Source of the DNA: an uncultured Gemmatimonadaceae bacterium
GTDB taxonomy: Bacteria; Gemmatimonadota; Gemmatimonadetes; Gemmatimonadales; Gemmatimonadaceae
Direction of reading: 5' to 3'
Assembly: GCA_963829055.1 (NCBI GenBank)
Contig: CAWHHI010000016.1
Span: 288,001 to 352,000, forward strand
DNA: 64,000 nt
Part shown: positions 2-63,352 of the stretch, in pieces
Position numbering within the stretch: the stretch's first letter is position 1
Layout: each line of letters starts with the position of its first letter
Notes under the pieces: generated by a model
What the model saw: only the letters and a program-made list of their open reading frames with translations
Told to the model about the DNA's origin: nothing
Database searches by the model: none
Translations under genes and position numbers: made by a program

Positions 2-526
2 GTGTTAGGCGCGCTGGCGGAGCAGCGCGAGCTCGATCTCGAGCTCGACATCTATGGGGTGGCCCAGGATGTTGAAGGCGTTCGATACCGCGAGGAGCTC
101 GTCGCACTCGCGTCCGGTGATCCGCGCGTGCGCGTCTGCGAGCCGCTCGACAGCGACCGCGTGGTGGACACGCTGGCTGGTTACGATGCCACGGTCGTTC
201 CGTCGCAGTGGCTGGAGACCGGCCCGCTCACGGTCCTCGAGTCATTCGCGGCTGGCGTCCCCGTAGTCGGCTCCAACCTTGGTGGAATCGCGGAGCTGGT
301 GGGGCACGATCGAAATGGGTGGCTGGTGCCACACGCGGACATCAAGGCGTGGGGAGCCGCACTGGCACAGCTCACGAGCCATCGCGGTTTCGTGGATCGC
401 CTGCGTGCGGGTGTGCGGCCCCCGCGGTCTACGGATGACGTCGCGCGCGACATGCTCTCCGTGTACGAGGCGATCGTTCCGCGGCGGACGCATCAACGCG
501 TGAGTATTCCGGTCGGGGTGGCGTGA
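2..526 (+). CDS. Glycosyltransferase family 4 (5'-partial)
   Basis: GT-B C-terminal motif VVPSQWLETGPLTVLESFAAGVPVVGSNLGGIAELV; frame open at window edge. Confidence 0.9.
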   Translation: MLGALAEQRELDLELDIYGVAQDVEGVRYREELVALASGDPRVRVCEPLDSDRVVDTLAGYDATVVPSQWLETGPLTVLESFAAGVPVVGSNLGGIAELVGHDRNGWLVPHADIKAWGAALAQLTSHRGFVDRLRAGVRPPRSTDDVARDMLSVYEAIVPRRTHQRVSIPVGVA

Positions 527-1722
527 TGCGCGTGCTCTACGTGCAGTACACGAACCCCGGCGCATATCCACCGCTCGTTCGCGGGGCGCGACTGCTTGCG
601 GAGTCGGGTGCCGAGGTCATGATGCTCGGGACGCGTGTGCGAGGGCTCGATGCGCTCGACGCGCTGCCAATTCCCGGCGTGAATTTCAGGCTCATGGCGG
701 CGGCGTCCGAGGGGTGGCGCCTCAAGGCGCACTACGCTCGTTATGCGGCGTGGGTCGCTCGCGACGGCACGGCCTTCAGGCCGGACTGGATCTACGCGTC
801 CGACCTGCTCTCGGCGCCCATCGCGCGCGCCATCGCGGCGCTGAGCGGCGCACGCATCGTCTACCACGAGCACGACGCGCCGGCGATCGGACACGAGAGC
901 TGGACGATCAAGCGCTGCCTGGAGGCGCGTCAATGGCTGCTGAGACAGGCCGACATCGTCGTCACGCCTAACGCCGAGCGATCGGCGCATCTGTCGAAGG
1001 CGAGCGGCGGCCGCTCGGTCATCACGGTGTGGAATTGCCCGCTGCGCCCGACCGATGCACCGATCCGAGTGCTCAGGAACGAAGGGCTCTGCGTGCTGTT
1101 TCGTGGATCGATCAACAGCGAGCGGTTGCCGCTGACGGTGATCGAGGCGCTGGCGTGTGTCGGCGACGGGACGAGCCTCAACATTGCGGGGTACGAAACC
1201 GTCGGCTCGCGCGGGCACGTCGTCGATCTCGTCACGAGGGCGGAGCGCCTTGGGATCCGCGAGCGCGTCCGCGTGCTCGGCACGATTACCGAGGCGGCTC
1301 TCGCCACGGTTGGGGCGCAGTGTGACGTGGGGCTCGCGTTCATGCCAATGTCGTCGAGCGACGAGAACATGCGTCACATGACCGGCGCGTCGAACAAGGT
1401 GTTCGAGTACCTGTCGCACGGTATCGCGCCGCTCGTGAGCAATCTTCCGGACTGGCGCGCGACGTTCGTCGACCCGGGCTACGCGCTCGAGTGCGATCCG
1501 ACGGACAGCGAGTCGATCGCCGGCGCGCTCGCGTGGGCGGCACAGCACCGGGATGCCGTGCAGGAGATTGCCTCACGCGGGTGGGAGAGGCTCCAGGTGG
1601 ACTGGAACTACGAGTCGCAGTTCGAGCCGGTGCTGCGCGCGATGTGGACATCGCGCCGAGAAACAGTAGCCGCCGCGTCGGGCCCGGCCGATGACGAAGC
1701 AGGGGTGCCATGCGCGTCCTGA
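526..1722 (+). CDS. Glycosyltransferase family 4
   Basis: MRVLYVQY start coupled to the upstream stop (TGATG); SNKVFEYLSHGIAPLVSN motif. Confidence 0.85.
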   Translation: MRVLYVQYTNPGAYPPLVRGARLLAESGAEVMMLGTRVRGLDALDALPIPGVNFRLMAAASEGWRLKAHYARYAAWVARDGTAFRPDWIYASDLLSAPIARAIAALSGARIVYHEHDAPAIGHESWTIKRCLEARQWLLRQADIVVTPNAERSAHLSKASGGRSVITVWNCPLRPTDAPIRVLRNEGLCVLFRGSINSERLPLTVIEALACVGDGTSLNIAGYETVGSRGHVVDLVTRAERLGIRERVRVLGTITEAALATVGAQCDVGLAFMPMSSSDENMRHMTGASNKVFEYLSHGIAPLVSNLPDWRATFVDPGYALECDPTDSESIAGALAWAAQHRDAVQEIASRGWERLQVDWNYESQFEPVLRAMWTSRRETVAAASGPADDEAGVPCAS

Positions 1723-2738
1723 TCCTCGGCGAAGACGCGCCCGGCGGCCTCATGGCATCGTACGCTCGCGGCTTCACCGAGTGCGGCGCCGACGTGCGCA
1801 CGTTCTGCCTTGCGCGCACGTACGGCGCCGTCATGCCCGCTCTCCCGTCACGCGCGTTGCGGCGCCTGGCTGAGCCCGTGCTGCTTCGCGCGTTCAACGA
1901 GAAAGTGACGCGTGAGGCAGGCGGGATCGTCGCGGATCTCGTGTTCGTGATCAAGGGCCATCGGCTGAGCGCGACAACGATAGATGCCGTACGTGAGTCC
2001 GTCGGCGCGCCTGTCGTCAACTTCTATCCCGACGATCCCTTCTCGAACGAGCGCTCGAATCGCCTGGCGTATGGTCCGGATGTGCTCGCGGCGTACGACG
2101 CGTGCTTCACGTTCGCGCGCCATCTCGTCCCGGCGTACGAGAAGGCGGGAACGCAGTCGGTGCACTACCTGCCATTCGCGCGCGATCCAAAGTTGCACGC
2201 GCCTGTTGCGGAGTCAGGCCCGCCAGCATTCGACGTCGTGTTCGTTGGGAATCTGGATGACGTCCGCGTTAGGTTCCTCGACGCGCTGGCGACGGACTAT
2301 CGTGTGGCCGTGTTCGGCGAGCGGACGACCGCGACCGTGCCGCGATCACGAGCGCTCGCACGCGCGACGTTCGGGCCGGCGGCGTATGGTGCCGACCTCG
2401 CGCGCGCCTTGGCGAGCGGCGCGATCTCGCTCAACGTCATGCGGCGCCAGAACGCGCACAGCCATAACATGCGCTCGTTCGAGTCGCCGGCATGTGGCGC
2501 GTTCACGCTGAGTCAGCGAACTCCGGAGCTGACGGAGCTGTTTGCCGAAGGCGAGGAAGTGGTGTGCTTCGGGACGGAGGACGAGCTGCGTGAGGCCGTC
2601 GCGCGCTGGCGCGCAGATGCGAAGGGGCGTGCTATCGTCGCGCGCGCTGGCTACGAGCGCGTTCGCGACGACACGTACGCTCGGCGCGCCGGCACAATCC
2701 TCGAGCGAGTCGGCCTGGTGACCGCGGTGGCGTCTTGA
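1710..2738 (+). CDS. CgeB-like glycosyltransferase (Glyco_trans_1_2)
   Basis: DVVFVGN, ISLNVMR, HNMRSFESPACGAFTLS, ARAGYERV..DTY motifs. Confidence 0.85.
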   Translation: MRVLILGEDAPGGLMASYARGFTECGADVRTFCLARTYGAVMPALPSRALRRLAEPVLLRAFNEKVTREAGGIVADLVFVIKGHRLSATTIDAVRESVGAPVVNFYPDDPFSNERSNRLAYGPDVLAAYDACFTFARHLVPAYEKAGTQSVHYLPFARDPKLHAPVAESGPPAFDVVFVGNLDDVRVRFLDALATDYRVAVFGERTTATVPRSRALARATFGPAAYGADLARALASGAISLNVMRRQNAHSHNMRSFESPACGAFTLSQRTPELTELFAEGEEVVCFGTEDELREAVARWRADAKGRAIVARAGYERVRDDTYARRAGTILERVGLVTAVAS

Positions 2739-4021
2739 TGGGCGCGACCGATGTGGAACCGACGCGAGCCGCGGTGCGCGCATCGGCCCCGAGGCGGCTC
2801 GCGATCTTCACGTCGCATCCGATTCAGTATCAGGCGCCACTGTTCCGCGCACTCGCCGCGTCCGGTCGTGTCGAGCCCACCGTGTACTTCGGATCGAGAC
2901 ACGGCGTCGATGTGTCGATGGACACCGGGTTCGGCACAGCCTTTCGCTGGGATGTTCCGCTGCTCGAAGGGTACGAGCACCTGTTCCTCCCTAACGCGGC
3001 GGCGAAGCCCAATGTCTCGCGGTTCAACGGCGTCCGCCTCAGGAGCCCGGGCGAAATTCTCGCGGCAGGCCGTCACGACGCGCTGCTCGTGCTTGGATGG
3101 CAGACGCGCGCGCATATACAGATGCTGCGCGCGGCGTGGCGCCTGAACATTCCCGTGATGATCCGCGGTGAATCGACGTTGCAGCGCTCTCCGTCCGCCG
3201 GCGTGCGAGCGTTGGCGCGACGGTTCATGTGGTTGCCGGCGCGGCAGCGCGTCTATCGCGCGGCGTTCGACCGGGTCGACGCGTTCCTCGTCATCGGAAC
3301 TCGGAATCGCGACTACTATCGCGCGTTCGGCGTGCCTGACGAGAAGTTCTTCTGGGCGCCGTACGGCGTGGACAACGACTGGTTCTCACTGTCGGAGCCG
3401 GCACGCGGGTTGGCGCGAGACCGCGTCCGACGGCAACTCGACGTGAGCGATGCGAGCGTCGTATTTGCGAGCTCGGCCAAGCTCATCGCGCGCAAGCGTC
3501 CCTTCGATCTCGTGGACGCCGTCGCGACCGTGCGACGCAGGGGCGTCGACGCCCGGGCACTGTTCATCGGCGATGGCGAAGAGCGTGCGGCGATCGAAGC
3601 GCACGCCCGTAGAGCAGGGATTGCGGAGTTCACTCGGATCGCGGGGTTTGTGAATCAGGCTGAGCTACCGGCGTGGTACGCTGCGGCCGACGCACTTGTA
3701 CTTCCGTCCGATTCGCGCGAGACGTGGGGGCTCGTGGTCAACGAAGCCATGGCGGCCGGGTTGCCGGTCGTCGTCAGTGACGCCGCGGGCTGTTCGGTCG
3801 ACCTCGTCCGCGAAGGCGAGAACGGGTTCACGTATCCGTGTGGCGACGTCTCCGCGTTGGCTGAACGCCTCTTCTCGATCGCATCGCTCACGGGCGACGC
3901 ACGGCGTGCGCTCGGCAACCGCTCGCGCGAGATCGTGTCGCAGTTTGGCATTAGCGTTGCGGCGAAGGCGACGATTGACGCGCTCGATACGGTTAGCGGT
4001 CACAGGAAACCCAAGCGATGA
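2738..4021 (+). CDS. Glycosyltransferase family 4
   Basis: LAIFTSHPIQYQAPLFR N-terminus; ETWGLVVNEAMAAGLPVVVSD motif. Confidence 0.9.
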   Translation: MGATDVEPTRAAVRASAPRRLAIFTSHPIQYQAPLFRALAASGRVEPTVYFGSRHGVDVSMDTGFGTAFRWDVPLLEGYEHLFLPNAAAKPNVSRFNGVRLRSPGEILAAGRHDALLVLGWQTRAHIQMLRAAWRLNIPVMIRGESTLQRSPSAGVRALARRFMWLPARQRVYRAAFDRVDAFLVIGTRNRDYYRAFGVPDEKFFWAPYGVDNDWFSLSEPARGLARDRVRRQLDVSDASVVFASSAKLIARKRPFDLVDAVATVRRRGVDARALFIGDGEERAAIEAHARRAGIAEFTRIAGFVNQAELPAWYAAADALVLPSDSRETWGLVVNEAMAAGLPVVVSDAAGCSVDLVREGENGFTYPCGDVSALAERLFSIASLTGDARRALGNRSREIVSQFGISVAAKATIDALDTVSGHRKPKR

Positions 4022-6669: not shown

Positions 6670-8565
6670 GTGTGCGGGATCGCGGCGGCACTCGGCGTGC
6701 GCGATGCGGAGCGCGTCATCGCGTCGATGTCGCGCGCGGTCGCGCACCGCGGGCCAGACGATGATGGCCACCAGAACCTGATCGGTCGCGATGGCGGAGT
6801 GCAGGGTGCCATCGCGCATCGCCGACTGTCGATTCTCGACCTGACGTCCGCGGGGCATCAGCCGATGATCTCCGCCAACGGGCGGTACACGATCGCGTTC
6901 AACGGCGAGATCTACAACTTCCGTGGGCTGCGGACGGAGCTGGAGCGAGAGGGCATCAACTTTTCGAGCAATGGCGACACAGCCGTGTTGCTCGAGGGCT
7001 GGGCCCGATTCGGTCCGGAGTTCGTGCGGCTGCTCGAAGGCATGTTCGCGTTCGTACTGTGGGACGAGCACGAGCAGGCGCTCTACGTGGCGCGCGACGC
7101 GTTCGGGATCAAACCGCTCTACTACGCACTCGCCGGAACGGGCTTGCTCGTCGCGAGCGAGGTGCGGGCGATCGTCGCGTCAGGCATCGTGCGCGGGCAG
7201 ATCGATCAGCAGGCGCTGGCGGGCTACCTGACGTTTGGCTCGGTTCCCGAGCCCGCGACGATCGTCGCGGGTGTCCGGGCGGTACCGGCAGGCGCGGTGA
7301 TGCGGTTCGACGTCGAGCACGCGTCGTTCCGCGAGGTCGACCGTCGTGGGCCCATCGCGTGGGACGAGGGGAGAGAGCCGGTGCGCGACCGGGCGACGGC
7401 GGCGAAGCTCGTCCGCGGCGCGCTCGAGCGATCGGTGACACGCCACCTCGTGAGCGATGTGCCTGTCGCCGTGTTTCTGTCCGGGGGACTCGATTCGTCC
7501 GTCGTGGCGGCGCTCGCGGCGCGTCATGCCGGCGCGGGCATCGACGGGTTCACCGTCTCGTTCGCCGAGCGACGCTTCGACGAGAGTGCGGTGGCGAAGC
7601 TTGTGGCCGACCGCCATGGGATCCGCCATCATGTGATCCCGTTAGGCGGCGCCGACCTGCTCGCCGCGCTGCCCTCTGCGTTCTCCGCGATGGACCAGCC
7701 GACGCTCGACGGGATCAACACGTATGTGGTCAGCGCGGCCGTTCGCGCTCACGGCGTCAAAGTCGTGCTCTCCGGCCTCGGCGGCGACGAGCTGTTCGGC
7801 GGCTACCCGAGCTTCCGACGCGCTCGTGCGCTGGCGCGGTATGCTCGCGTGCCCGCGCCCGCGCGGTCGCTCGCGGCACGCGTGGCGGCACGCGTGGGCG
7901 GCGTGCGAGCGGCGAAGGTTGCGATCGGCCTGCGATCGGGCGCACCGGCTCATGCGGCGTACCTGGCCTCTCGCACACTTTTCGGCGAGCGTCAGGTCTT
8001 CGCGTTGTGTGGCGCACGGCCATTGTCGGGCGAGAGCGCGCCTGGCGAGATGAGTCTCCTGCAGCAGGTGTCGTTGCACGAGCTCACGGGATACATGCGG
8101 AACACGCTGCTCCGGGATTCGGATGTGTTCAGCATGGCACATGCGCTCGAGCTTCGCGTCCCATTCATCGATGCGGAAGTCGCCGCCACGGCGTTCGGCG
8201 CGGCGGATAACCTCAAGCTGGCGAGCGGTACGTCCAAACCGTTGCTGGTCGACGCCACGCGGGACTTACTGCCTGACGAGGTCTGGAACCGGCCGAAGCA
8301 GGGTTTCGTGCTACCGTTCGCGGACTGGATGAGTGGTACGCTCGCGGCCGAGGTCGACGCCACGTTAGGTGATCGCGATCGCCTGCGAGCGCTCGGTATC
8401 GCGCCCGAAGCGGCGCGCATGGTGTGGTCCGCGTTCGTCAACCGCCAGGCCGGCGTGACCTGGTCCCGCCCCTGGTCGCTGTACTCGCTCGTACGCTGGG
8501 CGGTCGCCAACGGCATCGAAGACGTCGCGGCGGTCGACGCGCGCGCCGAGGTCGTGGCGACGTGA
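6670..8565 (+). CDS. asnB: Asparagine synthase (glutamine-hydrolysing) family amidotransferase
   Basis: N-terminal M-C-G-I (GTG TGC GGG ATC), HRGPD, FNGEIYN, RDAFGIKPLY, LSGGLDS, SGLGGDELFGGY, RPKQGF. Confidence 0.93.
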   Translation: MCGIAAALGVRDAERVIASMSRAVAHRGPDDDGHQNLIGRDGGVQGAIAHRRLSILDLTSAGHQPMISANGRYTIAFNGEIYNFRGLRTELEREGINFSSNGDTAVLLEGWARFGPEFVRLLEGMFAFVLWDEHEQALYVARDAFGIKPLYYALAGTGLLVASEVRAIVASGIVRGQIDQQALAGYLTFGSVPEPATIVAGVRAVPAGAVMRFDVEHASFREVDRRGPIAWDEGREPVRDRATAAKLVRGALERSVTRHLVSDVPVAVFLSGGLDSSVVAALAARHAGAGIDGFTVSFAERRFDESAVAKLVADRHGIRHHVIPLGGADLLAALPSAFSAMDQPTLDGINTYVVSAAVRAHGVKVVLSGLGGDELFGGYPSFRRARALARYARVPAPARSLAARVAARVGGVRAAKVAIGLRSGAPAHAAYLASRTLFGERQVFALCGARPLSGESAPGEMSLLQQVSLHELTGYMRNTLLRDSDVFSMAHALELRVPFIDAEVAATAFGAADNLKLASGTSKPLLVDATRDLLPDEVWNRPKQGFVLPFADWMSGTLAAEVDATLGDRDRLRALGIAPEAARMVWSAFVNRQAGVTWSRPWSLYSLVRWAVANGIEDVAAVDARAEVVAT

Positions 8566-9734
8566 GAGCGCTGCACGTGATTCCATCCGCCGCCCCGGGC
8601 GACGGCGGGCCGAACCTCGCGGTGCGCGCAATCGCGCGTGGTCTTGTCTCCCGGGGCATTGACGTCACCGTCGCGACGACGAACGCGGACGGCGTGAGGA
8701 CGTTGCCGGTGCCGCTCGAGACTCCCGTCATCGACGAAGGTGTCGTCTATCGCTACTTCGCGCGCACCGTGCCCGGATCGTGGAAGTTCTCGTGGCCGCT
8801 CACTCGCTGGTTGTGGGCGAACGCCGGTGGATACGATGTCGTCCACGTACACGCGCTATTCTCGTACGCGACCATTCCAGGTTGTCGCGCTGCCGCGCAC
8901 GCGCCGGTGCCATACGTTCTTCGACCACTCGGAACGCTGAGCGAGTGGAGTCTCGGCCACCGCCGCTGGAAAAAGAAGCCGTACTACGCGCTGCTCGAAC
9001 GATCCCATCTCGAGATGGCAGCGGCCATTCACGTGACGTCGAATGCCGAAGCTGACGATGTCGCCCGCCTCGGCTACGGCGACCGCGCGCGTGTCATTCC
9101 GCTCGGCGTGACCGTGGACGACAAGCTGTGGATGGGTGCACGGCCCGTCGCCACCGAGCGGCCACTGCGGCTGCTGTTCCTGTCGCGTCTTCACGAGAAG
9201 AAGAACGTTCCTCTGTTGCTGCGCGCTCTCGCCAACGTCAGGAGCTCGGCGCGCGACGTGGAGTTGACGATCGCCGGAGACGGCGATCCGCGCTATCGCG
9301 CCGAGCTGTCCGCACTGACCGCTCAGCTCGGACTGGGCGAGCGCGTACGATTCATCGGCCACGTGGATGGGGAAGAGAAGAGACGGGTGCTCTCCGACGC
9401 CGACTGCTTCGTGTTGCCATCCGCGCACGAGAACTTCGGGATCGCTGTGGCGGAAGCGCTCGCCGCGGGACTGCCCGTAATCGTCACGCCGGGCGTAGCG
9501 CTCGCGCCTAACGTTAGTGACGCCGGCGCGGGACTCGTCGCGGACGCCACGGATGACGCGGTCGCCGCGGCCATCGCGTGGGCGGCGGACCACCCGGCGG
9601 CGCTCGTCGAGATGGGCCAGCGCGCGTGGCGTCTTGCACGGACGGACTTGTCCTGGGAGACCACGTGTGCCCGCCTCTCGGATCTCTACACGGAACTGGC
9701 GATGTCGCGCAAACGTCAGGGTCGTCCGGCGTGA
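8562..9734 (+). CDS. Glycosyltransferase family 4
   Basis: GTGA overlap with asnB; FLSRLHEKK and ENFGIAVAEALAAGLPVI motifs. Confidence 0.9.
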   Translation: MRALHVIPSAAPGDGGPNLAVRAIARGLVSRGIDVTVATTNADGVRTLPVPLETPVIDEGVVYRYFARTVPGSWKFSWPLTRWLWANAGGYDVVHVHALFSYATIPGCRAAAHAPVPYVLRPLGTLSEWSLGHRRWKKKPYYALLERSHLEMAAAIHVTSNAEADDVARLGYGDRARVIPLGVTVDDKLWMGARPVATERPLRLLFLSRLHEKKNVPLLLRALANVRSSARDVELTIAGDGDPRYRAELSALTAQLGLGERVRFIGHVDGEEKRRVLSDADCFVLPSAHENFGIAVAEALAAGLPVIVTPGVALAPNVSDAGAGLVADATDDAVAAAIAWAADHPAALVEMGQRAWRLARTDLSWETTCARLSDLYTELAMSRKRQGRPA

Positions 9735-9820: not shown

Positions 9821-10678
9821 GTGTCGGCGATCGTGCTGACCTATAACGAAGAGCGAAACCTCCCCGATTGCCTCGCGTCGCTGGCGGGTTGGGTGGAGCA
9901 GCTGTTCGTCGTCGATTCCGGGAGTACCGACAGGACCGTGGCGATCGCACGCGAGGCTGGCGCCGTCGTCATGGAGCACGCGTTCGAGCACTATGGCGCT
10001 CAGCGGAACTGGGCGATCGATCATCTGCCGATCGCATCGCCGTGGACGCTTCACGTTGACGCCGACGAGCGGATAACGCCGGAGTTGCGGGCGTCCATAA
10101 CGGCTGTGCTCGGCAAGAGCGACGGAAGTGCATCGTCGGTTGCGGGGTACCTCGTATCGCGCCGAACGATGTTCATGGGGCGCTGGATACGGCATGGGGG
10201 CCATTACCCCGCGTGGCACCTGCGGCTCACGCGAACGGGCGCCGGCCGGTGCGAGGACCGCCTCTATGACCAGCATTTCTACGTGTCCGGCGCGGTCCAA
10301 AAGCTGCATGGCGACCTCATCGACACGTTGACGCCTGACGTGGCGACGTTCACCGCGCGGCATTTGCGGTGGGCGGCGCTGGAAGCGGCGGAGCACGATG
10401 CACCCCCGGATGCGCGCGGGCGAATTCGTGGACGGCTGGGGACGGACAACGCCATCGAGCAGCGACGCTGGTTGCGAGATTGGTATGCCCGCTTGCCACT
10501 GTTCGTTCGGCCGACCATCTACTTCCTGTACCGTTATTTCGTTAGGCTCGGCTTCCTGGATGGGCGTGCCGGGCTCGTGTTCCATGTGCTGCAAGGCTTC
10601 TGGTTCCGGTTCCTCGTTGATGCCCTTATCCTCGAGCGCCGGCTTCGCCGGAAGGAGGCAGTGGCATCCAAGGAGTAG
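9821..10678 (+). CDS. Glycosyltransferase family 2
   Basis: IVLTYNEERNLPDCL, VVDSGSTDRT, DADE motifs; possible original start at 9731 is interrupted by an in-frame TGA. Confidence 0.9.
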   Translation: MSAIVLTYNEERNLPDCLASLAGWVEQLFVVDSGSTDRTVAIAREAGAVVMEHAFEHYGAQRNWAIDHLPIASPWTLHVDADERITPELRASITAVLGKSDGSASSVAGYLVSRRTMFMGRWIRHGGHYPAWHLRLTRTGAGRCEDRLYDQHFYVSGAVQKLHGDLIDTLTPDVATFTARHLRWAALEAAEHDAPPDARGRIRGRLGTDNAIEQRRWLRDWYARLPLFVRPTIYFLYRYFVRLGFLDGRAGLVFHVLQGFWFRFLVDALILERRLRRKEAVASKE

Positions 10679-13955: not shown

Positions 13956-15029
<1,074 letters not shown>

Positions 15030-39785: not shown

Positions 39786-39794
39786 CCGTTAGGC

Positions 39795-48153: not shown

Positions 48154-48216
48154 GGCCGTCACCTCGCTGAACTCGCGTTAGGCACACGGCCGCCATTCCT
48201 CTCGAGGAGCACGGTT

Positions 48217-49479: not shown

Positions 49480-50502
49480 GTGACCATCCAGGATTATCTC
49501 GACGAAGCCCAGGCGCTCGAGCGCGAGCTCGACGAGCGCTTGCAACAGATCGAGCCCGCGACGCGCATCGATGTCGTGAAGGGCCAGTTGCGTGATTGGC
49601 GCGCACGTCTCGATCAGCTGCAGAAGTCCATCACGACGGTCCCGCCTGACGCGCGGCGCGACGCCGGCATCGCGCTGAATCGCGTTCGCAGCGGCTTCGA
49701 AGATGCGATGGCGCAACGCGAGGCTGCCGCGACCGGCTCTGGAGCGCAGGCCGCGGCCGATCTCACCATGCCCGCGCGCGAGCGTTGGCGCGGCGGCAGA
49801 CACCCCGTCACGCTCGTCATTCGCGAGATCCGCGAGATCTTCCGCGAGCTCGGCTTCACGGTCGCGTTAGGCCCCGAGGCCGAGACCGAGTGGTACAACT
49901 TCGGCGCGCTGAACTTCCCGCCGGACCACCCGGCCATGGATGCGCACGACACGTTGTACCTCGGACCCGGATCGCTGCTGCGGACGCACACATCGCCCGT
50001 GCAGGTGCGCACGATGCAGCGCTGGGCGCCGCCCATTCGCATCCTCGCCCCCGGCAACGTCTATCGCCGCGACTTCTTCGACCCGTCGCACGCTCCGATG
50101 TTCTCGCAGATCGAGGGGCTGTCCGTCGACGAGGGCGTGAGCTTCGTCGATCTCAAGGCGACGCTCACGAACTTCGCGCGACGCTTCTTCGGTACCGCGC
50201 GCACGCGCTTCCGTCCGAGCTACTTCCCGTTCACGGAGCCGTCGGCCGAGATGGACGCGCAGTGCGGCGTGTGTGGTGGCTCGGGATGCCCGACGTGCAA
50301 GGGCACCGGGTGGATCGAGATCCTCGGCAGCGGCATGGTGCATCCGGCTGTGCTCGAGTCGGCGGGCATCGACAGCGAGCGCTACACCGGCTGGGCGTTC
50401 GGCATGGGTCCTGGCCGCATCGCGATGTCGCGTTACGGCATTCCCGACATTCGTCTCCTTTACGATTCCGACGTGCGTTTCCTGGAGCAGCTCGCGCGAT
50501 GA
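49480..50502 (+). CDS. pheS: Phenylalanine--tRNA ligase alpha subunit
   Basis: NFGALNFPPDHPA, LRTHTSPVQ, FRPSYFPFTEPS, WIEILGSGMVHP. Confidence 0.97.
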   Translation: MTIQDYLDEAQALERELDERLQQIEPATRIDVVKGQLRDWRARLDQLQKSITTVPPDARRDAGIALNRVRSGFEDAMAQREAAATGSGAQAAADLTMPARERWRGGRHPVTLVIREIREIFRELGFTVALGPEAETEWYNFGALNFPPDHPAMDAHDTLYLGPGSLLRTHTSPVQVRTMQRWAPPIRILAPGNVYRRDFFDPSHAPMFSQIEGLSVDEGVSFVDLKATLTNFARRFFGTARTRFRPSYFPFTEPSAEMDAQCGVCGGSGCPTCKGTGWIEILGSGMVHPAVLESAGIDSERYTGWAFGMGPGRIAMSRYGIPDIRLLYDSDVRFLEQLAR

Positions 50503-52982
50503 ACGTTTCGTACAACTGGCTGAAAGATTTCGTCGATATCGACCTGAGCCCGGTCGCGCTCGGTGACCTGATCACGTCGCGAGCCGCTACCGTCGACGCC
50601 GTGGAGTCGCTGCGCGACGATCTCCGGCAGTTCGTCGTCGCGCGTGTCGTCGAGTGTGCACGCCATCCCGACAGCGATCACCTCTCGGTGACGAAGGTGG
50701 ACGCCGGCACTGGCGAGCTGCTCGACGTCGTGTGCGGCGCGCCTAACGTTCAGGCCGGCAAGCTCTACCCGTTCGCGAAGACGGGAACGAAGATGCCCGC
50801 AGGCTTCACGATCGAGCGTCGGAAGATCCGCGGCGCGGTCTCGAACGGGATGCTGTGCTCGGCGCGCGAGATCGGCTTGGGCGAGGAGCAGGACGGCATC
50901 CTCGAGCTCAACGTCGACGTTCCACCCGGGACGCCGCTGCTCGACGCGATTCCGTCGGTCTCCGACGCGCGCCTCGTCGTCGACGTGGGCGCCAACCGAC
51001 CCGATCTACTCTCGCACCTGGGCGTTGCACGCGAGGTCGCCGCGGCCCTCGGCAAACCACTCGAGATGCAGCGCGCCGCGGCCCAGATCGCGAATGCCTC
51101 CCGTCCGCCGGTTCCCATCGGGTCGACCACGCGCACGGGCGTCACGGGCGGCGTCAGCGTCACCATCGAAGACGTGGACGGCTGCCCACGCTATCTCGGA
51201 GCGGTTGTCCGCGGCGTCCGCGTCGGACCAAGCCCGGATTGGCTGGTGCAGCGGCTTGATGGTGCGGGCGTTCGCTCTATCAACAACGTCGTAGACATCA
51301 CGAACTTCATGCTGCTCGGCTTCGGCCAGCCGATGCACGCGTTCGACGCGAAGCGTCTTGCGGGCCCCGCGATCATCGTGCGCCGTGCAAAGGCTGGCGA
51401 GAAGCTCGTAACGCTCGACGGAATCGAACGCTCGCTGACGGAGGACATGTGCGTCATCGCTGACGGCGAGCGCGCACAGGCACTGGCGGGGGTGATGGGC
51501 GGCCGCGACTCCGAAGTCTCGTCCGAGACGACCGACATCTTTCTCGAGGTCGCGTCGTTCAACCCGCGGCGCGTGCGACAGATGCGCCGCGCACTCTCAC
51601 TTTCTACTGAAGCCAGCTATCGCTTCGAGCGTGGTACCGATGCCGCGTCAGCGCCTGAGCGCTTGCAGCAGGCCGTCGCGCTTATCATCGCGCTCGCGGG
51701 AGGGACGGCGGAGCCCGCGGTTGACGTCTATCCGGTGCCGCGCGTCGCAGGGCCGCTCGTTGTCCGCGTCGCACGGGTCAAGCAGGTGCTCGGCGAACCG
51801 ATTCCTGCCGCTCGCATCGTGCAGTTGCTGCGCTCGATCGGATTCGCTGGCGAGGTTCGCCCCGGGACCGAGATGCTCACTGGCAACGAAGAGATTGTCG
51901 TGAGCGCGCCAACGTGGCGGCAGGATATCGTGGCCGAAATCGACGTGATCGAGGAGGTCGCTCGGCTGCACGGCTACGACTCCCTCTCTGATCAGCTGCG
52001 TCCGTTTCGCGTCGGCAATGTTCCCGACGCGCCGAACTTCGATCTGGACTCCCACATCCAGGATATGCTCGCAGGTGAGGGACTGTTCGAGGTCCGTCCC
52101 CTGCCGTTCGTGGCTGGCGACGACGCCACTCACGTCCGCGTCGCGAATCCGCTCGCTGAGAACGAGGGGCACCTCCGCACGTCCATCCTCGAGACGCTCA
52201 CGAGCCGCGCGGAGTTCAATCTGTCGCACATGGAAGGGAACGTGCGCCTGTTCGAAGTGGGTGCCGTGTTCGCGCCTCGGGCAGGATCCGCACTCCCGCT
52301 CGAGCGCAGGAGCGTGGGCGTAATTGTCATGGGCGATCGGCGCCCGCCGCATTTCACCGATCCGAAGCCACCGCGCTACGACCAGTGGGATGCCAAGGCC
52401 CTGGCCGAGAGGCTGGTCGAGGTGGCGGTGCCCGATGCGCGCGCGGTCTTCGTTCCGGCGGACGCTGCGTCGCAGGCGGACGGAGCGCTCTGGACAATCG
52501 AGCTCAATGGCACTGCGCGAGGGACGGTCCGAACGGTGCCGCTCGATGCACCTGTGTGGGCCTCAACAGCCTACGGCATCGAGCTGGACCTGGGTGTCGT
52601 CGAATCGGCGGACGTCGCGGCTCCGGGCAAGTCGATTCATGGACAGACTGCGACATCCCCGCCGCTGAAGCACGCGCAGTTCAAGCCGTTGCCGTCGACG
52701 CCGGCGGCTCAGATCGATCTCGCGCTGCTCGTGCCGGAATCGCTGCAGGCCGCGGAGGTCGAGCGGGTGATCCGGAACAACGGAGGCGACCTGCTGGAGC
52801 GATTGTCGTTGTTCGACGAGTTCCGTGGCCAGGGTCTGCCGGCGGGGACGCGAAGCCTCGCGTGGCGATTGACGTTCCGCGACGCAACGCGCACTCTACG
52901 CGACAAGGAGATCGAAGGCCGCACCAACAAAATCCTACGTGCCCTGGAAGGAGAGCTCGGTGTCCGACAGCGCAGCGCCTGA
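50499..52982 (+). CDS. pheT: Phenylalanine--tRNA ligase beta subunit
   Basis: VSYNWL, HPDSDHL, VCGAPN, NRPDLLSHLG, FGQPMHAFD, RFERG, C-terminal FDX-ACB domain. Confidence 0.97.
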   Translation: MNVSYNWLKDFVDIDLSPVALGDLITSRAATVDAVESLRDDLRQFVVARVVECARHPDSDHLSVTKVDAGTGELLDVVCGAPNVQAGKLYPFAKTGTKMPAGFTIERRKIRGAVSNGMLCSAREIGLGEEQDGILELNVDVPPGTPLLDAIPSVSDARLVVDVGANRPDLLSHLGVAREVAAALGKPLEMQRAAAQIANASRPPVPIGSTTRTGVTGGVSVTIEDVDGCPRYLGAVVRGVRVGPSPDWLVQRLDGAGVRSINNVVDITNFMLLGFGQPMHAFDAKRLAGPAIIVRRAKAGEKLVTLDGIERSLTEDMCVIADGERAQALAGVMGGRDSEVSSETTDIFLEVASFNPRRVRQMRRALSLSTEASYRFERGTDAASAPERLQQAVALIIALAGGTAEPAVDVYPVPRVAGPLVVRVARVKQVLGEPIPAARIVQLLRSIGFAGEVRPGTEMLTGNEEIVVSAPTWRQDIVAEIDVIEEVARLHGYDSLSDQLRPFRVGNVPDAPNFDLDSHIQDMLAGEGLFEVRPLPFVAGDDATHVRVANPLAENEGHLRTSILETLTSRAEFNLSHMEGNVRLFEVGAVFAPRAGSALPLERRSVGVIVMGDRRPPHFTDPKPPRYDQWDAKALAERLVEVAVPDARAVFVPADAASQADGALWTIELNGTARGTVRTVPLDAPVWASTAYGIELDLGVVESADVAAPGKSIHGQTATSPPLKHAQFKPLPSTPAAQIDLALLVPESLQAAEVERVIRNNGGDLLERLSLFDEFRGQGLPAGTRSLAWRLTFRDATRTLRDKEIEGRTNKILRALEGELGVRQRSA

Positions 52983-53578: not shown

Positions 53579-53765
53579 CCCTGATGCCGACGCGGAACGC
53601 GACAGTTCGCACCGGCGCGCGTTAGGGCGCGATTGCGCTCGGGCCCAGCGCAGGGTAGCTTCTCGCAAGCGACCAGTCGAGCTGTAGGTCCAAGTACCCT
53701 TTGCAGTTAGGCCGTCCCATCCCGCGCCCTTCGCCGGTGCCGGCTCGGATTGCCCCTGTATCGGG
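53579..53765 (+). ncRNA. ssrS: 6S RNA
   Basis: zapA-X-rny synteny; about 187-nt rod: CCTGATGC/GTATCGGG closing stem, bubble, GCACCGGCG..AGGGCGCG / CGCGCCCT..CGCCGGTGC, AGGGTA/TACCCT. Confidence 0.75.
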
Positions 53766-56326: not shown

Positions 56327-57697
56327 CGGCACGGCGTCGCGGCGCCGCGCCGTCCGCCTCGTTAGGCGAGCTGGAGCTGTTCGGAGCCGATTCGCCGGCT
56401 CCTCCCAAGCGTGAGACGAAGCGCGACACGTCGCGCGCGTCTGATCGATCGTCGCGCGCCGTGCCCCCGCCGCCACCGCGCGTGGAACGCATGGTGCGCG
56501 AGGAGGAGGCCGTTCCCGGAACGACTGCTGGTGCCGCGGTCTCGGTGATGGCGCTGACGTGCACGGCGAAGGACGTCCTCGAGGGGGCGTTCATGCCGCT
56601 CTGGGTCAGAGGCGAGGTCTCCGACTTCAAGGCGCATCGCAACGGCCACTGGTACTTTTCCCTCCGCGACGCCGACGCCCAGATCCGCTGCGTCGCGTGG
56701 GCGCGCGACCGTCGCATCCCCGCCCGCCCCGATGACGGGATGCAGATCGCCGCGTTAGGCCAGTTGACCGTCTACGCGGCTCGCGGTGACATGCAGTTCG
56801 CCGTCACGCGAATGGAGGCGGAAGGAGACGGCCTGTGGCGGAAGGCACTCGACCTCACGCGCGCGCGACTCCACGCCGAGGGTCTGCTGGATCCAGCGCG
56901 CAAGCGTCGTCTGCCGCAGCACCCGCGTCGCATTGCCGTCATCACCAGCCGCGACGGTGCCGCGCTGCGCGACATCTTCGCCGTTGCACAGCGGCGATGT
57001 CCGTCCGTCGAGATCGTGCTCGTGCCCGCGGCGGTGCAGGGTGACACCGCTCCTGAATCGTTATGCTATGCGCTCGATCAGGTCGCGCGGTGGGCGGATG
57101 CGGACGTGCTCATCATCGGGCGTGGTGGCGGCGCGCGCGAGGATCTGTGGGCGTTCAACGACGAGCGCGTCGCTCGCGCGCTGGCGGCGTGTCCCATTCC
57201 GACCATCTCGGCCGTCGGCCATGAGATCGACATCTCGATCTGTGACCTCGTGGCGGATCTCCGCGCAGCAACGCCGTCTGCCGCGGCCGAGGCCGCGGTC
57301 CCGGTACAGGCGGAGATCCGGGAACGACTGCGCGCGTCCGCGGAGTTGCTGACCGATCTGACGGCCGATCACGTTTCGCGCGCGAAGCTGCGGGCGGCTG
57401 ACGCAGCGCGACGTGTCGTCTCCGGCGCGGCGCGGCGCGTGGATCGGCGGCGTCTGGAACTGCAGTCCGCGGCGGTCGCGCTCAACGCGCTGAGTCCGTT
57501 GGCGACGTTGGAGCGCGGCTACGCGATCGTCCGAACGCGGCGATGGGAAAACCGTCCGATCAGCGTCGACACTGGCAGCCGGCAGCGCGGTCGATGTCGT
57601 CTTCCGCGATGGTGTCGCGTCGGCCACGATCGAACGCGTCACGCCTAACGTCGTGGACGGTTCGGTCCCGGCCGGCACAACGGGAGAGGACCGGTGA
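56323..57697 (+). CDS. xseA: Exodeoxyribonuclease VII large subunit, frameshift near 57535
   Basis: [48 protein letters not shown]. Confidence 0.93.
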
Positions 57698-58845: not shown

Positions 58846-60772
58846 ATGATACTTCTCGACCGAATCAAGTCGCCCGCCGATCTCAAGAAGCTGAGCCGCG
58901 AGGAGCTGGCCGCGCTGGCCGGCGAGATGCGTGCACGCCTCATCGATGTCTGCTCGCGCACGGGCGGACACATCGGCGCGGGACTCGGCGTCGTCGAGTT
59001 GACGATCGCGCTGCACTACTGCTTCGACACGCCGGTCGACCAGATCGTCTGGGACGTAGGTCACCAGGGCTACCCGCACAAGATTCTCACCGGACGCGAC
59101 GACCGCCTCGACACGTTGCGGCAAGAGGGCGGGCTGTCCGGCTTTCTGAAGCGGGCCGAGAGCGAGTATGACGTGTTCGGCGCAGGTCACGCGGCTACGG
59201 CGATCTCCGCGGCACTCGGCGTCGCCGTCGGACGCGACATTCGCGACGAGAAATTCAAGGTCGTCGCTGTCCTGGGCGACGGCGCGCTGACGTCGGGGCT
59301 CGCGTACGAGGGGCTGAACAACGCCGGCGCATTCGGACCGGGACATCATCGTCGTGCTCAACGACAACGAGATGTCGATCGCGCCGAACGTCGGTGCCAT
59401 CTCGAAGTACCTGAACTCCGTCCAGCGCAATCCGCTCTACAACCGGCTCCGATCGAAGATCGGTGAGGTCGCCGACAACCTGAGCGAAAAGGGGCCGGGC
59501 GTGCTGTCCAGCGCCGGCGCGATGGTCCGTCGGTGGGAAGAGAGCGTGAAGGCGTTCCTCACGCCGGGCGTGCTGTTCGAGGAGCTCGGTTTCCGCTACT
59601 TCGGGCCGATCGACGGACACGACCTCGACGTGCTCGTCGACACGTTAGGCGCGGTGCGCACCATGACCGGCCCGCGGCTCGTGCACGTCGTGACACAGAA
59701 AGGGAGAGGCTTCCCCGCCGGTGAACGCGGCGCCGGTGCAGCGGAGAAGTGGCATGCGCTTCCGCCGGGTCATGATCCGGCAACGGGCAATCAGCTCGCC
59801 GCTGCCTCCGGAAACCCGCAGTACACCAAGGTGTTCGGCGAGGGACTCGCCGTGCTCATGTCCGAGCGCGATGACGTCGCCTGCATCACGGCCGCGATGC
59901 CGAGCGGCACGGGCACCGGTGTCGTCGCGAAGGCGCACCCGAAGCGGTTCTTCGACGTCGGCATCGCGGAAGGCCATGCGGTGACGTTCGCAGCCGGCCT
60001 CGCTACGCGCGGGATTCGGCCAGTCGTCGCGATCTACTCGACGTTCCTGCAACGCGCCTTCGACAACATCATTCACGACGTCGCGCTGCAGCACCTGCCC
60101 GTCCTGTTCTGCATGGATCGGGCGGGACTCGTCGGCGAGGACGGCGAGACGCACATGGGGCTCTACGACATCGCGTACATGCTGGCGGTGCCCGGCATGA
60201 CCGTCACCGCGCCGAAGGACGGCGGCGAGATGCTCGCGCTGCTCCGTACCGCGCTCGCGCACGAGGACGGCCCCATGTCGATCAGGTATCCTCGTGCGCC
60301 GCTGCCGGCGCCCGCACCCGCCATGGCCGATGTCACGTCGATCCCGTACGGGACGTGGGACGTCGTTAGGCGTGCGGCCGCTGGAGCCGAGGTCGCGATT
60401 CTCGCCGTCGGAACCATGGTCGCCCCCTCACTCGAGGCGGCGGAGACGCTCGCGGCCGATGGCTTGGAGGTCAGCGTGGTGAACTGCCGGTTCCTGAAGC
60501 CGTACGACGAGTTGACGCTGGCCGCAGTGATGTCCGAGCACCGCAAACTGCTCGTCGTGGAAGAAGGCACGGTGATCAACGGCTTCGGGGCATATATGGC
60601 GTCCGTCGTTCAGCGCCTCGATCCGGATATCCGCGTCGAGGCGCATGGAGTTCCCGATCGCGTGATCTACGCGGCATCGCGCGCGCGTCAGCTCGCGTCG
60701 TGCGGGCTCGATGCCGCTGGCATCGCAGCGCGCGTCCGCGCCCTTCACGAGAGCGAGGCGCTCACCGGGTGA
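58846..60772 (+). CDS. dxs: 1-deoxy-D-xylulose-5-phosphate synthase, frameshift near 59330
   Basis: [50 protein letters not shown]. Confidence 0.96.
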
Positions 60773-61648: not shown

Positions 61649-63348
61649 CCGAGTTACGCATCAAGAATTTCGCGATCATCGAGTCGCTCACGCTGCCGCT
61701 CGCACCGGGGTTCAACGTGTTGTCGGGTGAAACGGGAGCGGGCAAGTCGATCATCGTTGGCGCGTTAGGCCTCCTGCTCGGTGAACGTGCGAGCGGAGAT
61801 CTCATCCGCACCGGCGCGGACCGCGCGGTCGTCGAAGGCGTGTTCGACATCGCGGGACACACATCGGCCGCGTCCGTGCTCGACGAGCGCGGCGTCGACG
61901 TGGAGAACGACACGGTGGTGCTGCGTCGTGAGGTGAACGCCACCGGACGCGCGCGCGCATGGGTGAACGGCAGCACGGTCACGGCCGCGGTGCTCGCGGA
62001 AGTCGGTCGCCTGCTCGTGAACCTGCACGGCCAGCACGAAGCGCAGACGCTCCTCGACACGGACGCGCAGCGCCAGATCCTCGATGCGTTCGGCGGCGCG
62101 ACCGAGCAGGCGAACCAGCTTCGCGTCGCGTACGAGGCGCTTTCGGCGGTCCGACGCGACATCCAGACGCTCGAGTCGCGTCGGTCGGAAGCCGAACGGC
62201 GCGCGGACTACCTGCGGCACGTCTCGCAGGAGATCGACGCGGCGCGCCTGGTCGCCGGCGAGGAAGAGCGGCTCGAGGACGAGGCGCGGCGGCTGGAGCA
62301 TGCCGAGGAGCTCCGGTCACTCGCGCAGGGGATGACCGGGATCCTCGAGGGTGACGAGGACGCGGTGCTCCAGCGGCTTGCCGCCGTACAGCGCTCGCTC
62401 GCGAGCATTCAGCGTATCGATCCGTCGCTCGCGCGCCTGCAGGAGACGTTCGACGCGGCCTTCTACGGGCTCGAGGAGCTCGCTCGCGAGCTCGTCGCGT
62501 ATGAGGAAGGCATCGAGCTGGATCCAGAACGGCTCGCCGAGGTGGAGCGGCGGCGCGACCTCATCTTTCGCCTAACGAAGAAATACGGCCCGGAGATCGG
62601 CGACGTGCTCGAGACCGCGCAGCGCGCACGAGCCGAGCTGGATCTGGTCGACTCCGCGGCGTTCGACATCCGGCAGTTAGGGGAGCGCGAGCGCGCCGCT
62701 GCGGCTCGCGTCAGTGAAGCGGCCGCTGCGCTGACCGCGCTTCGCGTGGCGGCGGCCGATCGCCTCGCTCGCGCGGTCGATCAGGTCCTGCCAGACCTCG
62801 GGATCGCCGATGGACGGTTCACTGCGGCGCTCTCACCGCGCCCGGAGATCGGCGCAACGGGCGCCGAGGATGTGGAGTTCCGAGTGGCGCTCAACCTCGG
62901 GCACGACGCCCGTCCACTCGCGCGGGTCGCGTCAGGCGGTGAGCTCTCGCGTGTCATGCTCGCGCTCAAGACCATTCTGGCGCGTCTCGATCACGTTCCG
63001 ACGCTCGTCTTCGATGAGGTCGACGCTGGCATTGGTGGTCGCGTCGGCCTGCAGGTGGGCGAGACCATGCGCCGTGTCGCCGCGCACCATCAGGTCTTCG
63101 CCATTTCTCACCTTCCGCAGATCGCCGCCCGCGCGCACCACCACATCGTCGTGGCGAAAGGCGCGCGCGAAGGTGTCACGACCGCCGACACCCGCGTGCT
63201 CGACGGCGACGCCCGAGTCATCGAGATCGCGCGGATGCTTGGCGGTGATCCCGAGAGCGAGGTCAGTCAGGCGCACGCTCGCGAGCTCCTCGCGACCGCT
63301 GCGGTGCCTGACCCTTCCAGAGCGCCGCGGCGATCGAAGAAGCGTTAG
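61642..63348 (+). CDS. recN: DNA repair protein RecN
   Basis: LSGETGAGKS, HGQHE, ASGGELSR, FDEVDAGIGG, SHLPQIAA. Confidence 0.96.
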   Translation: MLTELRIKNFAIIESLTLPLAPGFNVLSGETGAGKSIIVGALGLLLGERASGDLIRTGADRAVVEGVFDIAGHTSAASVLDERGVDVENDTVVLRREVNATGRARAWVNGSTVTAAVLAEVGRLLVNLHGQHEAQTLLDTDAQRQILDAFGGATEQANQLRVAYEALSAVRRDIQTLESRRSEAERRADYLRHVSQEIDAARLVAGEEERLEDEARRLEHAEELRSLAQGMTGILEGDEDAVLQRLAAVQRSLASIQRIDPSLARLQETFDAAFYGLEELARELVAYEEGIELDPERLAEVERRRDLIFRLTKKYGPEIGDVLETAQRARAELDLVDSAAFDIRQLGERERAAAARVSEAAAALTALRVAAADRLARAVDQVLPDLGIADGRFTAALSPRPEIGATGAEDVEFRVALNLGHDARPLARVASGGELSRVMLALKTILARLDHVPTLVFDEVDAGIGGRVGLQVGETMRRVAAHHQVFAISHLPQIAARAHHHIVVAKGAREGVTTADTRVLDGDARVIEIARMLGGDPESEVSQAHARELLATAAVPDPSRAPRRSKKR

Positions 63349-63352
63349 GCGA

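Follow-up and report, generated by a model that had tools for sequence, protein, structure and literature searches.

The DNA studied here, a 64,000-nucleotide stretch of an uncultured Gemmatimonadaceae bacterium that we call the window (G000:C16:288001-352000), encodes ordinary housekeeping functions and carries, inside and between its genes, many copies of a short word, GTTAGG, whose full form is the 8-mer CGTTAGGC. Pfam matches place in it a glycosyltransferase cluster, Mla transport genes, Obg, DprA, HrcA, DnaJ, PrmA, MutS2 and DnaG, together with KsgA, IF3, L20, PheS/T, RNase Y, FolD, IspA, Dxs, NAD kinase and RecN, the last having its nearest named relatives in the Gemmatimonadaceae (Roseisolibacter sp., 75%). 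The window's own genome, labelled G000, is an assembly of 7,784,024 bases in 20 contigs with 66-67% G+C, rated 86% complete with 3.95% contamination; its congeners are labelled G001-G006. Near-identical DNA is present, as contigs, in 20 sequencing runs, the near-identical strains coming from 16 studies.

The window holds 48 copies of GTTAGG/CCTAAC, 32 on the plus and 16 on the minus strand, compared with a mean of 5.45 (SD 2.49, maximum 13) in 100 dinucleotide-preserving shuffles, and 29 of the 48 are the full CGTTAGGC (shuffle mean 1.05, maximum 5). An initial annotation, made by eye from the letters alone, had listed 32 plus-strand and 16 minus-strand copies with 29 full 8-mers, and our recount returned exactly and completely the same set. 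It had also seen only one TTAGG that lacks the preceding G, at 47991, and 48 of the 49 TTAGG in the window indeed sit inside GTTAGG. The copies are listed below with their place relative to called coding sequences (CDS); congener status was scored against five congeners, and "G000-specific" marks copies of G000 alone.

4..9, plus strand: GTTAGG 6-mer in a glycosyltransferase CDS, sense
967..972, minus strand: full CGTTAGGC in a glycosyltransferase CDS, antisense; kept in G001, G002, G003 and G005
2268..2273, plus strand: GTTAGG in a glycosyltransferase CDS; kept in G001 only
2990..2995, minus strand: GTTAGG in a glycosyltransferase CDS, antisense
7641..7646, plus strand: full 8-mer in the asparagine synthase CDS, frame x-CG TTA GGC; kept in 5/5 congeners
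8364..8369, plus strand: GTTAGG in the asparagine synthase CDS
9507..9512, minus strand: full 8-mer in a glycosyltransferase CDS, antisense; G000-specific
10541..10546, plus strand: full 8-mer in a GT2 CDS; kept in 5/5 congeners
11478..11483, plus strand: GTTAGG in a carbamoyltransferase CDS; G000-specific
13121..13126, minus strand: GTTAGG in a glycosyltransferase CDS, antisense
14558..14563, minus strand: full 8-mer in the GDP-mannose dehydratase CDS, antisense
14954..14959, plus strand: GTTAGG in the GDP-mannose dehydratase CDS
15609..15614, plus strand: full 8-mer in an unknown CDS (minus-strand gene)
17026..17031, plus strand: GTTAGG outside called genes
18521..18526, plus strand: GTTAGG outside called genes, adjoining the tRNA gene at 18530-18603
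20455..20460, minus strand: GTTAGG in the MlaE CDS, antisense
21962..21967, plus strand: full 8-mer in the MlaD CDS
22260..22265, minus strand: full 8-mer in the MlaD CDS, antisense
24438..24443, plus strand: GTTAGG, intergenic, upstream of obg
24968..24973, minus strand: full 8-mer in the Obg CDS, antisense; G000-specific
25318..25323, plus strand: GTTAGG in the Obg CDS; kept in 5/5 congeners
25956..25961, plus strand: GTTAGG in the DprA CDS; kept in 5/5 congeners
26568..26573, minus strand: full 8-mer directly downstream of dprA
27179..27184, plus strand: full 8-mer in a radical SAM CDS
30170..30175, plus strand: GTTAGG in the DnaJ CDS; kept in 5/5 congeners
30448..30453, minus strand: full 8-mer forming the TAA stop of dnaJ (GCC-TAA-CG)
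34900..34905, minus strand: full 8-mer in the MutS2 CDS, antisense
39627..39632, plus strand: full 8-mer, intergenic
39788..39793, plus strand: full 8-mer, intergenic, directly upstream of an rsmD-like gene
39956..39961, plus strand: full 8-mer in the RsmD-like CDS
44105..44110, plus strand: full 8-mer in a SpoIIE-type phosphatase CDS
44518..44523, minus strand: GTTAGG in the KsgA CDS, antisense
47334..47339, plus strand: full 8-mer in a metallo-beta-lactamase-fold CDS
48177..48182, plus strand: full 8-mer in the IF3 CDS; G000-specific
49404..49409, minus strand: GTTAGG, intergenic, in the L20/pheS gap
49866..49871, plus strand: full 8-mer in the PheS CDS; kept in 5/5 congeners
50742..50747, minus strand: full 8-mer in the PheT CDS, antisense
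53621..53626, plus strand: GTTAGG, intergenic, upstream of RNase Y
53706..53711, plus strand: GTTAGG, intergenic, upstream of RNase Y
56361..56366, plus strand: full 8-mer 35 nt downstream of the folD stop
56754..56759, plus strand: full 8-mer outside called genes
57644..57649, minus strand: full 8-mer in an unknown CDS (minus-strand gene)
59644..59649, plus strand: full 8-mer in the Dxs CDS; kept in 5/5 congeners
60365..60370, plus strand: full 8-mer in the Dxs CDS, frame GTT-AGG
61764..61769, plus strand: full 8-mer in the RecN CDS; G000-specific
62571..62576, minus strand: full 8-mer in the RecN CDS, antisense; kept in 5/5 congeners
62676..62681, plus strand: GTTAGG in the RecN CDS; G000-specific
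63344..63349, plus strand: full 8-mer forming the TAG stop of recN (CGT-TAG-GC)

The enrichment extends over the whole genome, where we counted 7,103 GTTAGG and 5,004 CGTTAGGC in 7.78 Mb; Markov models of order 0, 1, 2 and 3 predict 297, 131, 102 and 258 copies of the 8-mer, giving a 17- to 49-fold excess. Among 8-mers with at least 300 copies, CGTTAGGC ranks first by observed-to-expected ratio at order 3, followed by its own overlapping words, while the related words GTTAGC (356), GTTAGA (162) and CTTAGG (144) stay far below GTTAGG and 7,103 of the 7,392 genomic TTAGG are GTTAGG. The genus genomes other than G000 are rich as well, all six of them, with 2,501-5,112 copies. In G000 the sequence logo reads C(0.90)-GTTAGG-C(0.79), with weak flanks (G/T at -2, G/A after the word), and it is flat past ~10 bp, which rules out a longer repeat element. 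The 8-mer is not a palindrome, its reverse complement being GCCTAACG. Within the literature covered by our searches we found no published account of this word, and the initial annotation likewise knew of none for the lineage.

The hyper-abundance goes beyond what codons and peptides can account for, and copies are placed at permissive sites. Genes were called with our own codon-usage open reading frame (ORF) caller, which returned 6,489 genes covering 74% of the genome; because this is an undercall, figures for CDS and intergenic DNA are approximate. Within called genes the 8-mer occupies the four permitted frames (xCG-TTA-GGC 1,268; xxC-GTT-AGG-C 449; xGC-CTA-ACG 598; xxG-CCT-AAC-G 913), so that the word, which had been reported from different frames and from intergenic DNA, is found in every frame that avoids an in-frame stop, on both strands and between genes. 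Of its rare codons, the other feature pointed out at the start, 1,861 of 2,841 TTA, 790 of 4,025 CTA and 1,324 of 8,936 CCT lie inside the 6-mer. Shuffling synonymous codons within genes (20 replicates) left 155.8 +- 10.9 8-mers, compared with 3,228 observed, a 21-fold excess, and 579 +- 21 6-mers compared with 4,534. The 8-mer is realised in 10.8%-57.7% of the peptide contexts able to encode it, and amino-acid identity is no different at codons within the motif (0.62-0.71) than overall (0.66-0.67), giving no sign that proteins have been bent to fit the word.

Stop codons are a favoured place. As already noticed for the window, the word supplies the stops of dnaJ (DnaJ 29415-30452, CCTAAC 30448-30453) and recN (RecN 61603-63348, GTTAGG 63344-63349); genome-wide, 218 of 1,672 TAG and 297 of 807 TAA stops lie in the word, in total 515 of the 6,480 called genes. 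Word density per nucleotide is ~4.2 in CDS, 11.3 in the first 50 nt past a stop and 129 at the stop itself, making these first 50 nt 2.7-fold denser than CDS; the copies there are single.

The word is symmetric between strands and evenly spaced. The genome has 2,547 CGTTAGGC on the forward and 2,457 on the reverse strand, and adjacent copies share an orientation in 51.7% of cases. On contig C16, whose GC skew switches near 550 kb, GTTAGG is found 239 times on the plus and 179 times on the minus strand before the switch and 260 and 279 times after it, which puts 57% of the copies in one arm and 52% in the other on the G-rich strand. Compared with an exponential model, short gaps are depleted (0-100 bp, 214 observed and 623 expected; 100-200 bp, 334 and 568), gap lengths peak at 300-600 bp, and close copies are avoided within ~250 bp. 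Random draws of equally many sites from all peptide-compatible positions gave 161.6 +- 11.5 gaps below 100 bp, compared with 27 observed, and 141.6 gaps of 100-200 bp, compared with 62; since this draw also fails to give the avoidance, the avoidance is no coding artefact.

Within the genus, the word is conserved with lineage-specific gains. Aligned DNA of the congeners is 77-78% identical to the window, and of the G000 copies 31/43 are kept in G001, 28/41 in G002 and 23/34 in G005, with 12/35 in G003 and 15/41 in G004. Phase-matched 6-mer controls were kept at 23-25%, compared with 68-72% for the word in the closer congeners, about threefold better. Over 32.1 kb aligned in six genomes we found 37 word sites, 8 common to all and 12 present in a single genome, and most of the others follow the RecN clades; the non-motif states at orthologous sites are GC-richer neighbours of the word (GTTCGG 17, GCTCGG 14, GTCAGG 8). 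Shared sites, retention above controls and singletons together indicate that sites are inherited, protected and still arising in every lineage. Density is uneven, the subclade of G003 and G004 having half that of the denser subclade (G000, G001, G002, G005).

Across the order the distribution is patchy, with a few genera rich and most relatives depleted. We surveyed 201 genomes at least 80% complete by hand tally against a reversed control word (G013, G094 and G212 figure only as motif-poor rows of these tallies). Five of the 201 (G000, G127, G159, G215, G167) carry the word at 10 or more times the control level and eleven at 2.5-9 times, with two other families represented among them, and most others lie far below the control. 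One genus, g46, is mixed, with 66 copies in G155 and 3,479-4,141 in its three congeners; at the recN locus, G155 is 72-74% identical to those congeners, and the congeners are 82-83% identical among themselves. The richest genome seen, G014, has 6,360 copies in 5.1 Mb, and its RecN is only 61% identical to that of G000, whereas motif-poor genera are nearer by RecN (G015 75%, G011 70%). On a RecN tree of 39 rows, built by a quick method with G006 and G013 left out, richness needs at least two changes; the backbone is weak, and a single origin is possible. G014 shares 11 of 37 G000 sites, a number in which common descent and convergence at conserved compatible peptides are inseparable. In a 180-kb sample of the poor genome G008 we found no comparably enriched 8-mer.

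The word also has dialects. G010 carries 925 copies of CGTTTGGC, compared with 110 for its control, and this variant is at control level in 40 other genomes; G010 additionally has 605 CGTTAGGC and is enriched in CGTTATGC. The logos of G014 and G167 equal that of G000, including the purine after the word, and G127 is lax at the 5' C (0.51) and strict at the 3' C (0.97). The flanks of the word differ between g1/g9, g46 and g49.

DNA of foreign appearance lacks the word. The three longest motif-free stretches of G000 (C6:6854-55038, C11:7377-44055 and C6:591809-623330; 31-48 kb), two of which have 70-73% G+C, encode ~50% identical second copies of FtsK, DAHP synthase, chorismate synthase and FolD, some of them split over two frames. 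Second copies of single-copy genes at such low identity indicate that these stretches are probably foreign DNA or assembly chimeras; this content of second housekeeping-gene copies also rules out their being prophages.

A further identity, which the initial annotation had overlooked, is with the core of integron attC sites. In two poor genomes, G027 and G025, the word occurs in few copies, clustered on one strand at ~550-bp spacing and adjoining the integron integrase IntI. The attC sites of these arrays follow the pattern GCCTAAC-...-CAGCTTAAGCGCGATC-CGTTAGGC-GGC (logo of 51 sites), and the attC R' ends of this order read GATC-CGTTAGGC-GGC, the word forming the R' core with 8/8 matches; GTTAGGC fits the R' core rule GTTRRRY. 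The arrays themselves (L189-L194; G027:C95, C80, C43; G025:C3, C26) are large and of classic cassette type; they reach ~29 cassettes in 24 kb on G027:C95, and their attC sites are highly uniform, at ~95 nt. G000 has its own IntI on the minus strand (C20:208041-208958; 265.7 bits, TIGR02249 cut-off 265) and, within C20:197000-209000, attC-like sites bearing the word at 205102, 205717 and 207189; these lie on the 3'-end side of IntI, whereas classical integrons have them upstream. A purine follows the word (G 0.43-0.54, A 0.23-0.33) both in the genome-wide copies of four genera and in attC R' sites, and the -2 and -3 flanks differ between the two. When we folded the flanks of copies near G000 intI, only a few gave attC-like pairing, and genome-wide copies show no inverse core, L boxes or hairpin, nor are CCTAAC...GTTAGG pairs in excess. 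Of 41 relatives, 29 gave an IntI match irrespective of richness; the rich genomes G002 and G004 gave none, and the richest, G014, no more than a fragment. The attC-core identity is therefore real; IntI does not track richness, and the copies lack attC architecture.

DNA-import machinery is encoded in G000, and a specificity factor was not found among the candidates tested. DprA, singled out from the window as a hint of DNA uptake, is present at 25684-26520, ComEC lies at C16:789233-790018, and a type IV pilus cluster on C12 comprises two PilA, three unknown proteins, PilMNO and PilQ. A pilus-associated protein in the pilA/pilM gap (388 residues; G000:C12:399334-400497, L239:8334-9497, minus strand), belongs to no Pfam family; at 51-56% identity within the genus (RecN 86-90%) it is fast-evolving, and four congeners have a 35-36% identical paralogue.

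The initial annotation had proposed maintenance of the word at the level of DNA, as for HIP1 (highly iterated palindrome 1) and uptake sequences, and this core of its interpretation is supported by the codon-shuffle excess, the occurrence in all permitted frames, both strands and intergenic DNA, the above-control conservation and the even spacing. None of the refuting outcomes that it named (counts at the codon-shuffled level, related words equally common, enrichment missing from the rest of the genome and from its relatives) was observed. Of its options, the uptake signal and the nucleoid-protein site stay as candidates and the methyltransferase is weakened; a polar signal is not supported, as set out below. 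On our best reading, an ongoing sequence-specific process, rather than coding or composition, creates and keeps the word. The closest known parallels are the DNA uptake sequences (DUS) of the Neisseriaceae, read by the minor pilin ComP, and the uptake signal sequences (USS) of the Pasteurellaceae. In the excerpts of PMC1939737 available to us, DUS/USS are evenly spaced and without orientation bias, and uptake bias plus recombination is the simplest account of them; further sources, likewise seen in excerpt, are PMC3630211 and PMC3868556. As far as these excerpts describe them, DUS/USS resemble our word in being short non-palindromic words at ~1/kb, in either orientation, without replichore bias and evenly spaced, found inside genes and after gene ends, with lineage-specific dialects, and missing from foreign DNA. 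Since most features match this account combined with molecular drive, we rank first, at a probability of about 0.4, a reading of (C)GTTAGGC(R) as a self-tag of certain Gemmatimonadaceae for uptake or recombination, of the DUS/USS kind and spread by molecular drive. We infer that the word is read during uptake or recombination, and that it owes its maintenance to drive and not to selection for some function in the cell. Under such a scheme, which is the accepted mechanism for DUS/USS, a DNA-binding part of the transformation pathway would prefer double-stranded fragments carrying the word, and homologous recombination of these fragments would spread word-creating mutations; purifying selection on proteins would limit copies to synonymous codons, stops and the first 50-100 nt past genes. 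One tag per few hundred bases would suffice for a fragment, and a nearby second copy would bring no gain, so close pairs would be expected to stay rare.

Several findings weigh against the uptake-tag reading or set the word apart from DUS/USS. The 7-8 bp core is shorter than DUS/USS, the host is a member of the Gemmatimonadota, the on/off pattern is much patchier than in Neisseriaceae and Pasteurellaceae, with one genus in both states, and the ~250 bp avoidance range lies below the typical length of uptake fragments. Close inverted pairs at up to 60 bp are not in excess (+- 24, -+ 18, ++ 37, -- 31), differing in this from the inverted pairs of DUS/USS terminators. The coincidence with the attC core is foreign to DUS/USS and is left unexplained by an uptake model. 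No ComP-like receptor was identified for the word, and the only ComEA-type match in G000 is weak and partial, in an 81-residue frame (C12:494302-494424). Co-occurrence of the word with ComEA-like genes, suggested earlier as a check, did not emerge: the ComEA-type HHH_3 domain is present in 40 of 41 relatives, rich and poor alike, as is ComEC (40/41), and the 388-residue pilus-linked protein (36/41) does not track richness either. With uptake genes equally present in motif-poor relatives, these genes are permissive only. Our literature searches turned up no study of competence or of preferential uptake in Gemmatimonadota.

HIP1, GCGATCGC, is the other instructive case. According to the available parts of PMC5861425 and PMC13756078, it is a 15- to 300-fold hyper-abundant 8-mer, conserved both inside genes and between them and non-randomly spaced, which some lineages lack, and our word shares these traits, including the exceptional lineages. 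Unlike the word, HIP1 is palindromic, is tied to two methylases and occurs in most of a phylum; the word is asymmetric, is found in scattered genera, and no classic methyltransferase family is common to the rich genomes. HIP1 has itself been proposed as a transformation or uptake signal (PMC13756078; bioRxiv 10.1101/2024.09.10.611283; both in part), and the uptake and HIP1 classes may therefore converge.

Among the rival explanations, an enrichment produced artificially by base composition, by codon usage, by a family of dispersed repeats or by the assembly is barely credible: we found no support for it (the repeat resembling a miniature inverted-repeat transposable element, MITE, that the genome does carry is a separate one), and it is already refuted by dinucleotide shuffles, Markov models and codon shuffles, by a logo without conservation past ~10 bp, and by the richness of the same word in independent assemblies of four genera. 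An array of binding sites for an abundant protein of the chromosome, whether nucleoid-associated, of condensin or loader type, or using the sites as landmarks for repair, with selection keeping ~one site per kb, as Xu et al. read HIP1, would account for the even spacing, the avoidance below ~250 bp, the strand symmetry and the conservation above neutral controls, and HIP1 has been argued to be selected and linked to nucleoid structure (PMC5861425, seen in excerpt). We nevertheless consider it unlikely, as positions turn over fast, with 12 singletons among 37 sites, whole sister lineages manage without the word (66 copies in G155 versus 3,479-4,141), which would be odd for essential architecture, the pile-up at stop codons suggests the cheapest placement rather than a need, and no candidate protein was found. 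Methylation is less probable again. Here a methyltransferase coupled to biased short-patch repair, or a need for the methylated form (HIP1/Dcm-Vsr type), would maintain the word; CCTAAC, with A at position 5, has the format of many non-palindromic N6-methyladenine (m6A) sites, one-step neighbours such as CGTTGGGC are rarer per Mb in G000 (33) than in poor G008 (78), a small sample, and HIP1 is tied to two methylases in the abstract of PMC13756078. The methyltransferase/repair candidate put forward earlier was nonetheless weakened by what we found. G000 gave no match to PF01555, PF02384 or PF00145, and a search with a [DNS]PP[YFW] and C5-motif regular expression, with Pfam run on 20 of 78 candidate frames, yielded one weak D12-like gene (27 bits), rejected as reader because, of the 15 genomes among 41 that have an orthologue, 7 are poor, and none was found in rich G014. 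Across G000, G167, G127, G155 and G014, none of the three families, the only ones searched there, is common to the rich genomes (rich G127 has a 26-bit partial match, rich G167 only PF02384 and poor G155 several), with the proviso that G000 is only 86% complete; and a drive by repair would give no reason for close pairs to be avoided.

A polar Chi- or KOPS-type signal (KOPS, FtsK-orienting polar sequences) had also been raised, and the replichore check on C16, at only 57% and 52%, speaks against it. Chi, KOPS and AIMS (architecture-imparting sequences) are likewise over-represented core-genome 8-mers, but their orientation strongly follows that of replication and their readers are RecBCD/AddAB or FtsK, while our word is near-unpolar. 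That a helicase-nuclease or an immune system reads the word and spares densely tagged DNA is accordingly a reading to which we give very little weight, even though the word is the most over-represented 8-mer, over-representation being the criterion used for finding Chi sites, is absent from foreign-looking DNA and has a patchy distribution resembling that of mobile defence genes. Its excess far surpasses the values known for Chi, none of 5 genomes gave a match to RecC (PF04257), and the AddAB-type nuclease domain, intact in many poor genomes, had no match in rich G001, G002, G005, G014 and G127, a weak one in G167 and matches in short frames in G000, so that most of the rich genomes searched come out without it. 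A recombinase reader, IntI or another enzyme of the Xer/IntI family whose binding the copies would serve or stem from, for example as secondary cassette-insertion sites, is improbable in our judgement. It gains from the few copies of poor relatives sitting in cassette arrays beside IntI, from the IntI and word-bearing attC-like sites of G000 itself, from the purine preference common to genome-wide copies and R' sites, and from the low chance of an 8/8 match to a known recombination core. The order's attC sites end in CGTTAGGC plus a purine, the same sequence as the integron attC/attI core (R box, GTTRRRY), but the genome-wide copies are solitary, stand in frame inside housekeeping genes without partner boxes or hairpin, differ at the -2 and -3 flanks and are independent of IntI presence (29/41); moreover, the G010 dialect CGTTTGGC violates GTTRRRY in a genome without an IntI match, insertion sites within essential genes would harm, and precise cassette insertion or excision would not, we reason, turn a site into the word. 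A bolder combination of the uptake-tag reading with this identity, which we regard as a long shot, is a switchable genome-tagging system using the integron core (C)GTTAGGC(R), the R box at the end of each gene cassette in this order's integrons, as a password read by an import or recombination factor: cassettes and kin DNA would be preferentially imported, drive would stamp the word, and the factor would be gained, lost or retuned (to CGTTTGGC) within genus-level time. If true, the movement of integron cassettes would be tied to natural transformation and self-recognition in Gemmatimonadota.

To our knowledge, hyper-abundant genome words are recorded from few lineages, as DUS, USS and HIP1, and the present word is a further, independent case from a soil phylum that has received little study. 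The readers of such words and their origin by drive or selection have long been debated, including the USS receptor and the function of HIP1 (PMC1939737, PMC5861425 and PMC13756078, in the parts available). The on/off contrasts described here (the g46 genus, the two-fold subclade difference and the dialect) suit phylogenetic profiling for the reader and estimates of the rates at which tags build up and are erased, and the word-attC identity suggests a connection, open to testing, between the capture of cassettes and the import of DNA. For practical use, the word offers a sharp marker by which Gemmatimonadaceae assemblies can be binned and checked for foreign or chimeric DNA, and it may be needed on DNA constructs for transforming these bacteria. 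New elements of this analysis are the within-genus on/off contrast, the CGTTTGGC dialect, short-range avoidance measured with compatible sites as the null, the crowding at stop codons, the lack of methylases or AddAB/RecC in common, the flagging of chimeric DNA by the word and the direct check of attC identity.

Some smaller observations remain. AddAB-type genes are intact in G003 and G004, without a match in G001, G002 and G005, and reduced to short frames in G000, a pattern parallel to the two subclades; G006 has an AddAB-type match, so this pattern may be chance. The AddAB-type domains of G000 (C15:11673-16010) lie in frames of 258 and 339 residues, compared with more than 1,000 in relatives, and these frames, like its short ComEA-type frame, may be broken genes or long-read frameshift errors. 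The window has two transfer RNA (tRNA) genes, both on the minus strand, at 16647-16720 and 18530-18603, the second adjoined by the word copy at 18521-18526. At 15744-15885 lies the MITE-like dispersed repeat, intergenic and with terminal inverted repeats GTCATTCCGAGCG...CGCTCGGAATGAC; it bears no relation to the word and has 363 blastn matches in G000 and dozens of copies in G001, G003, G004 and G005.

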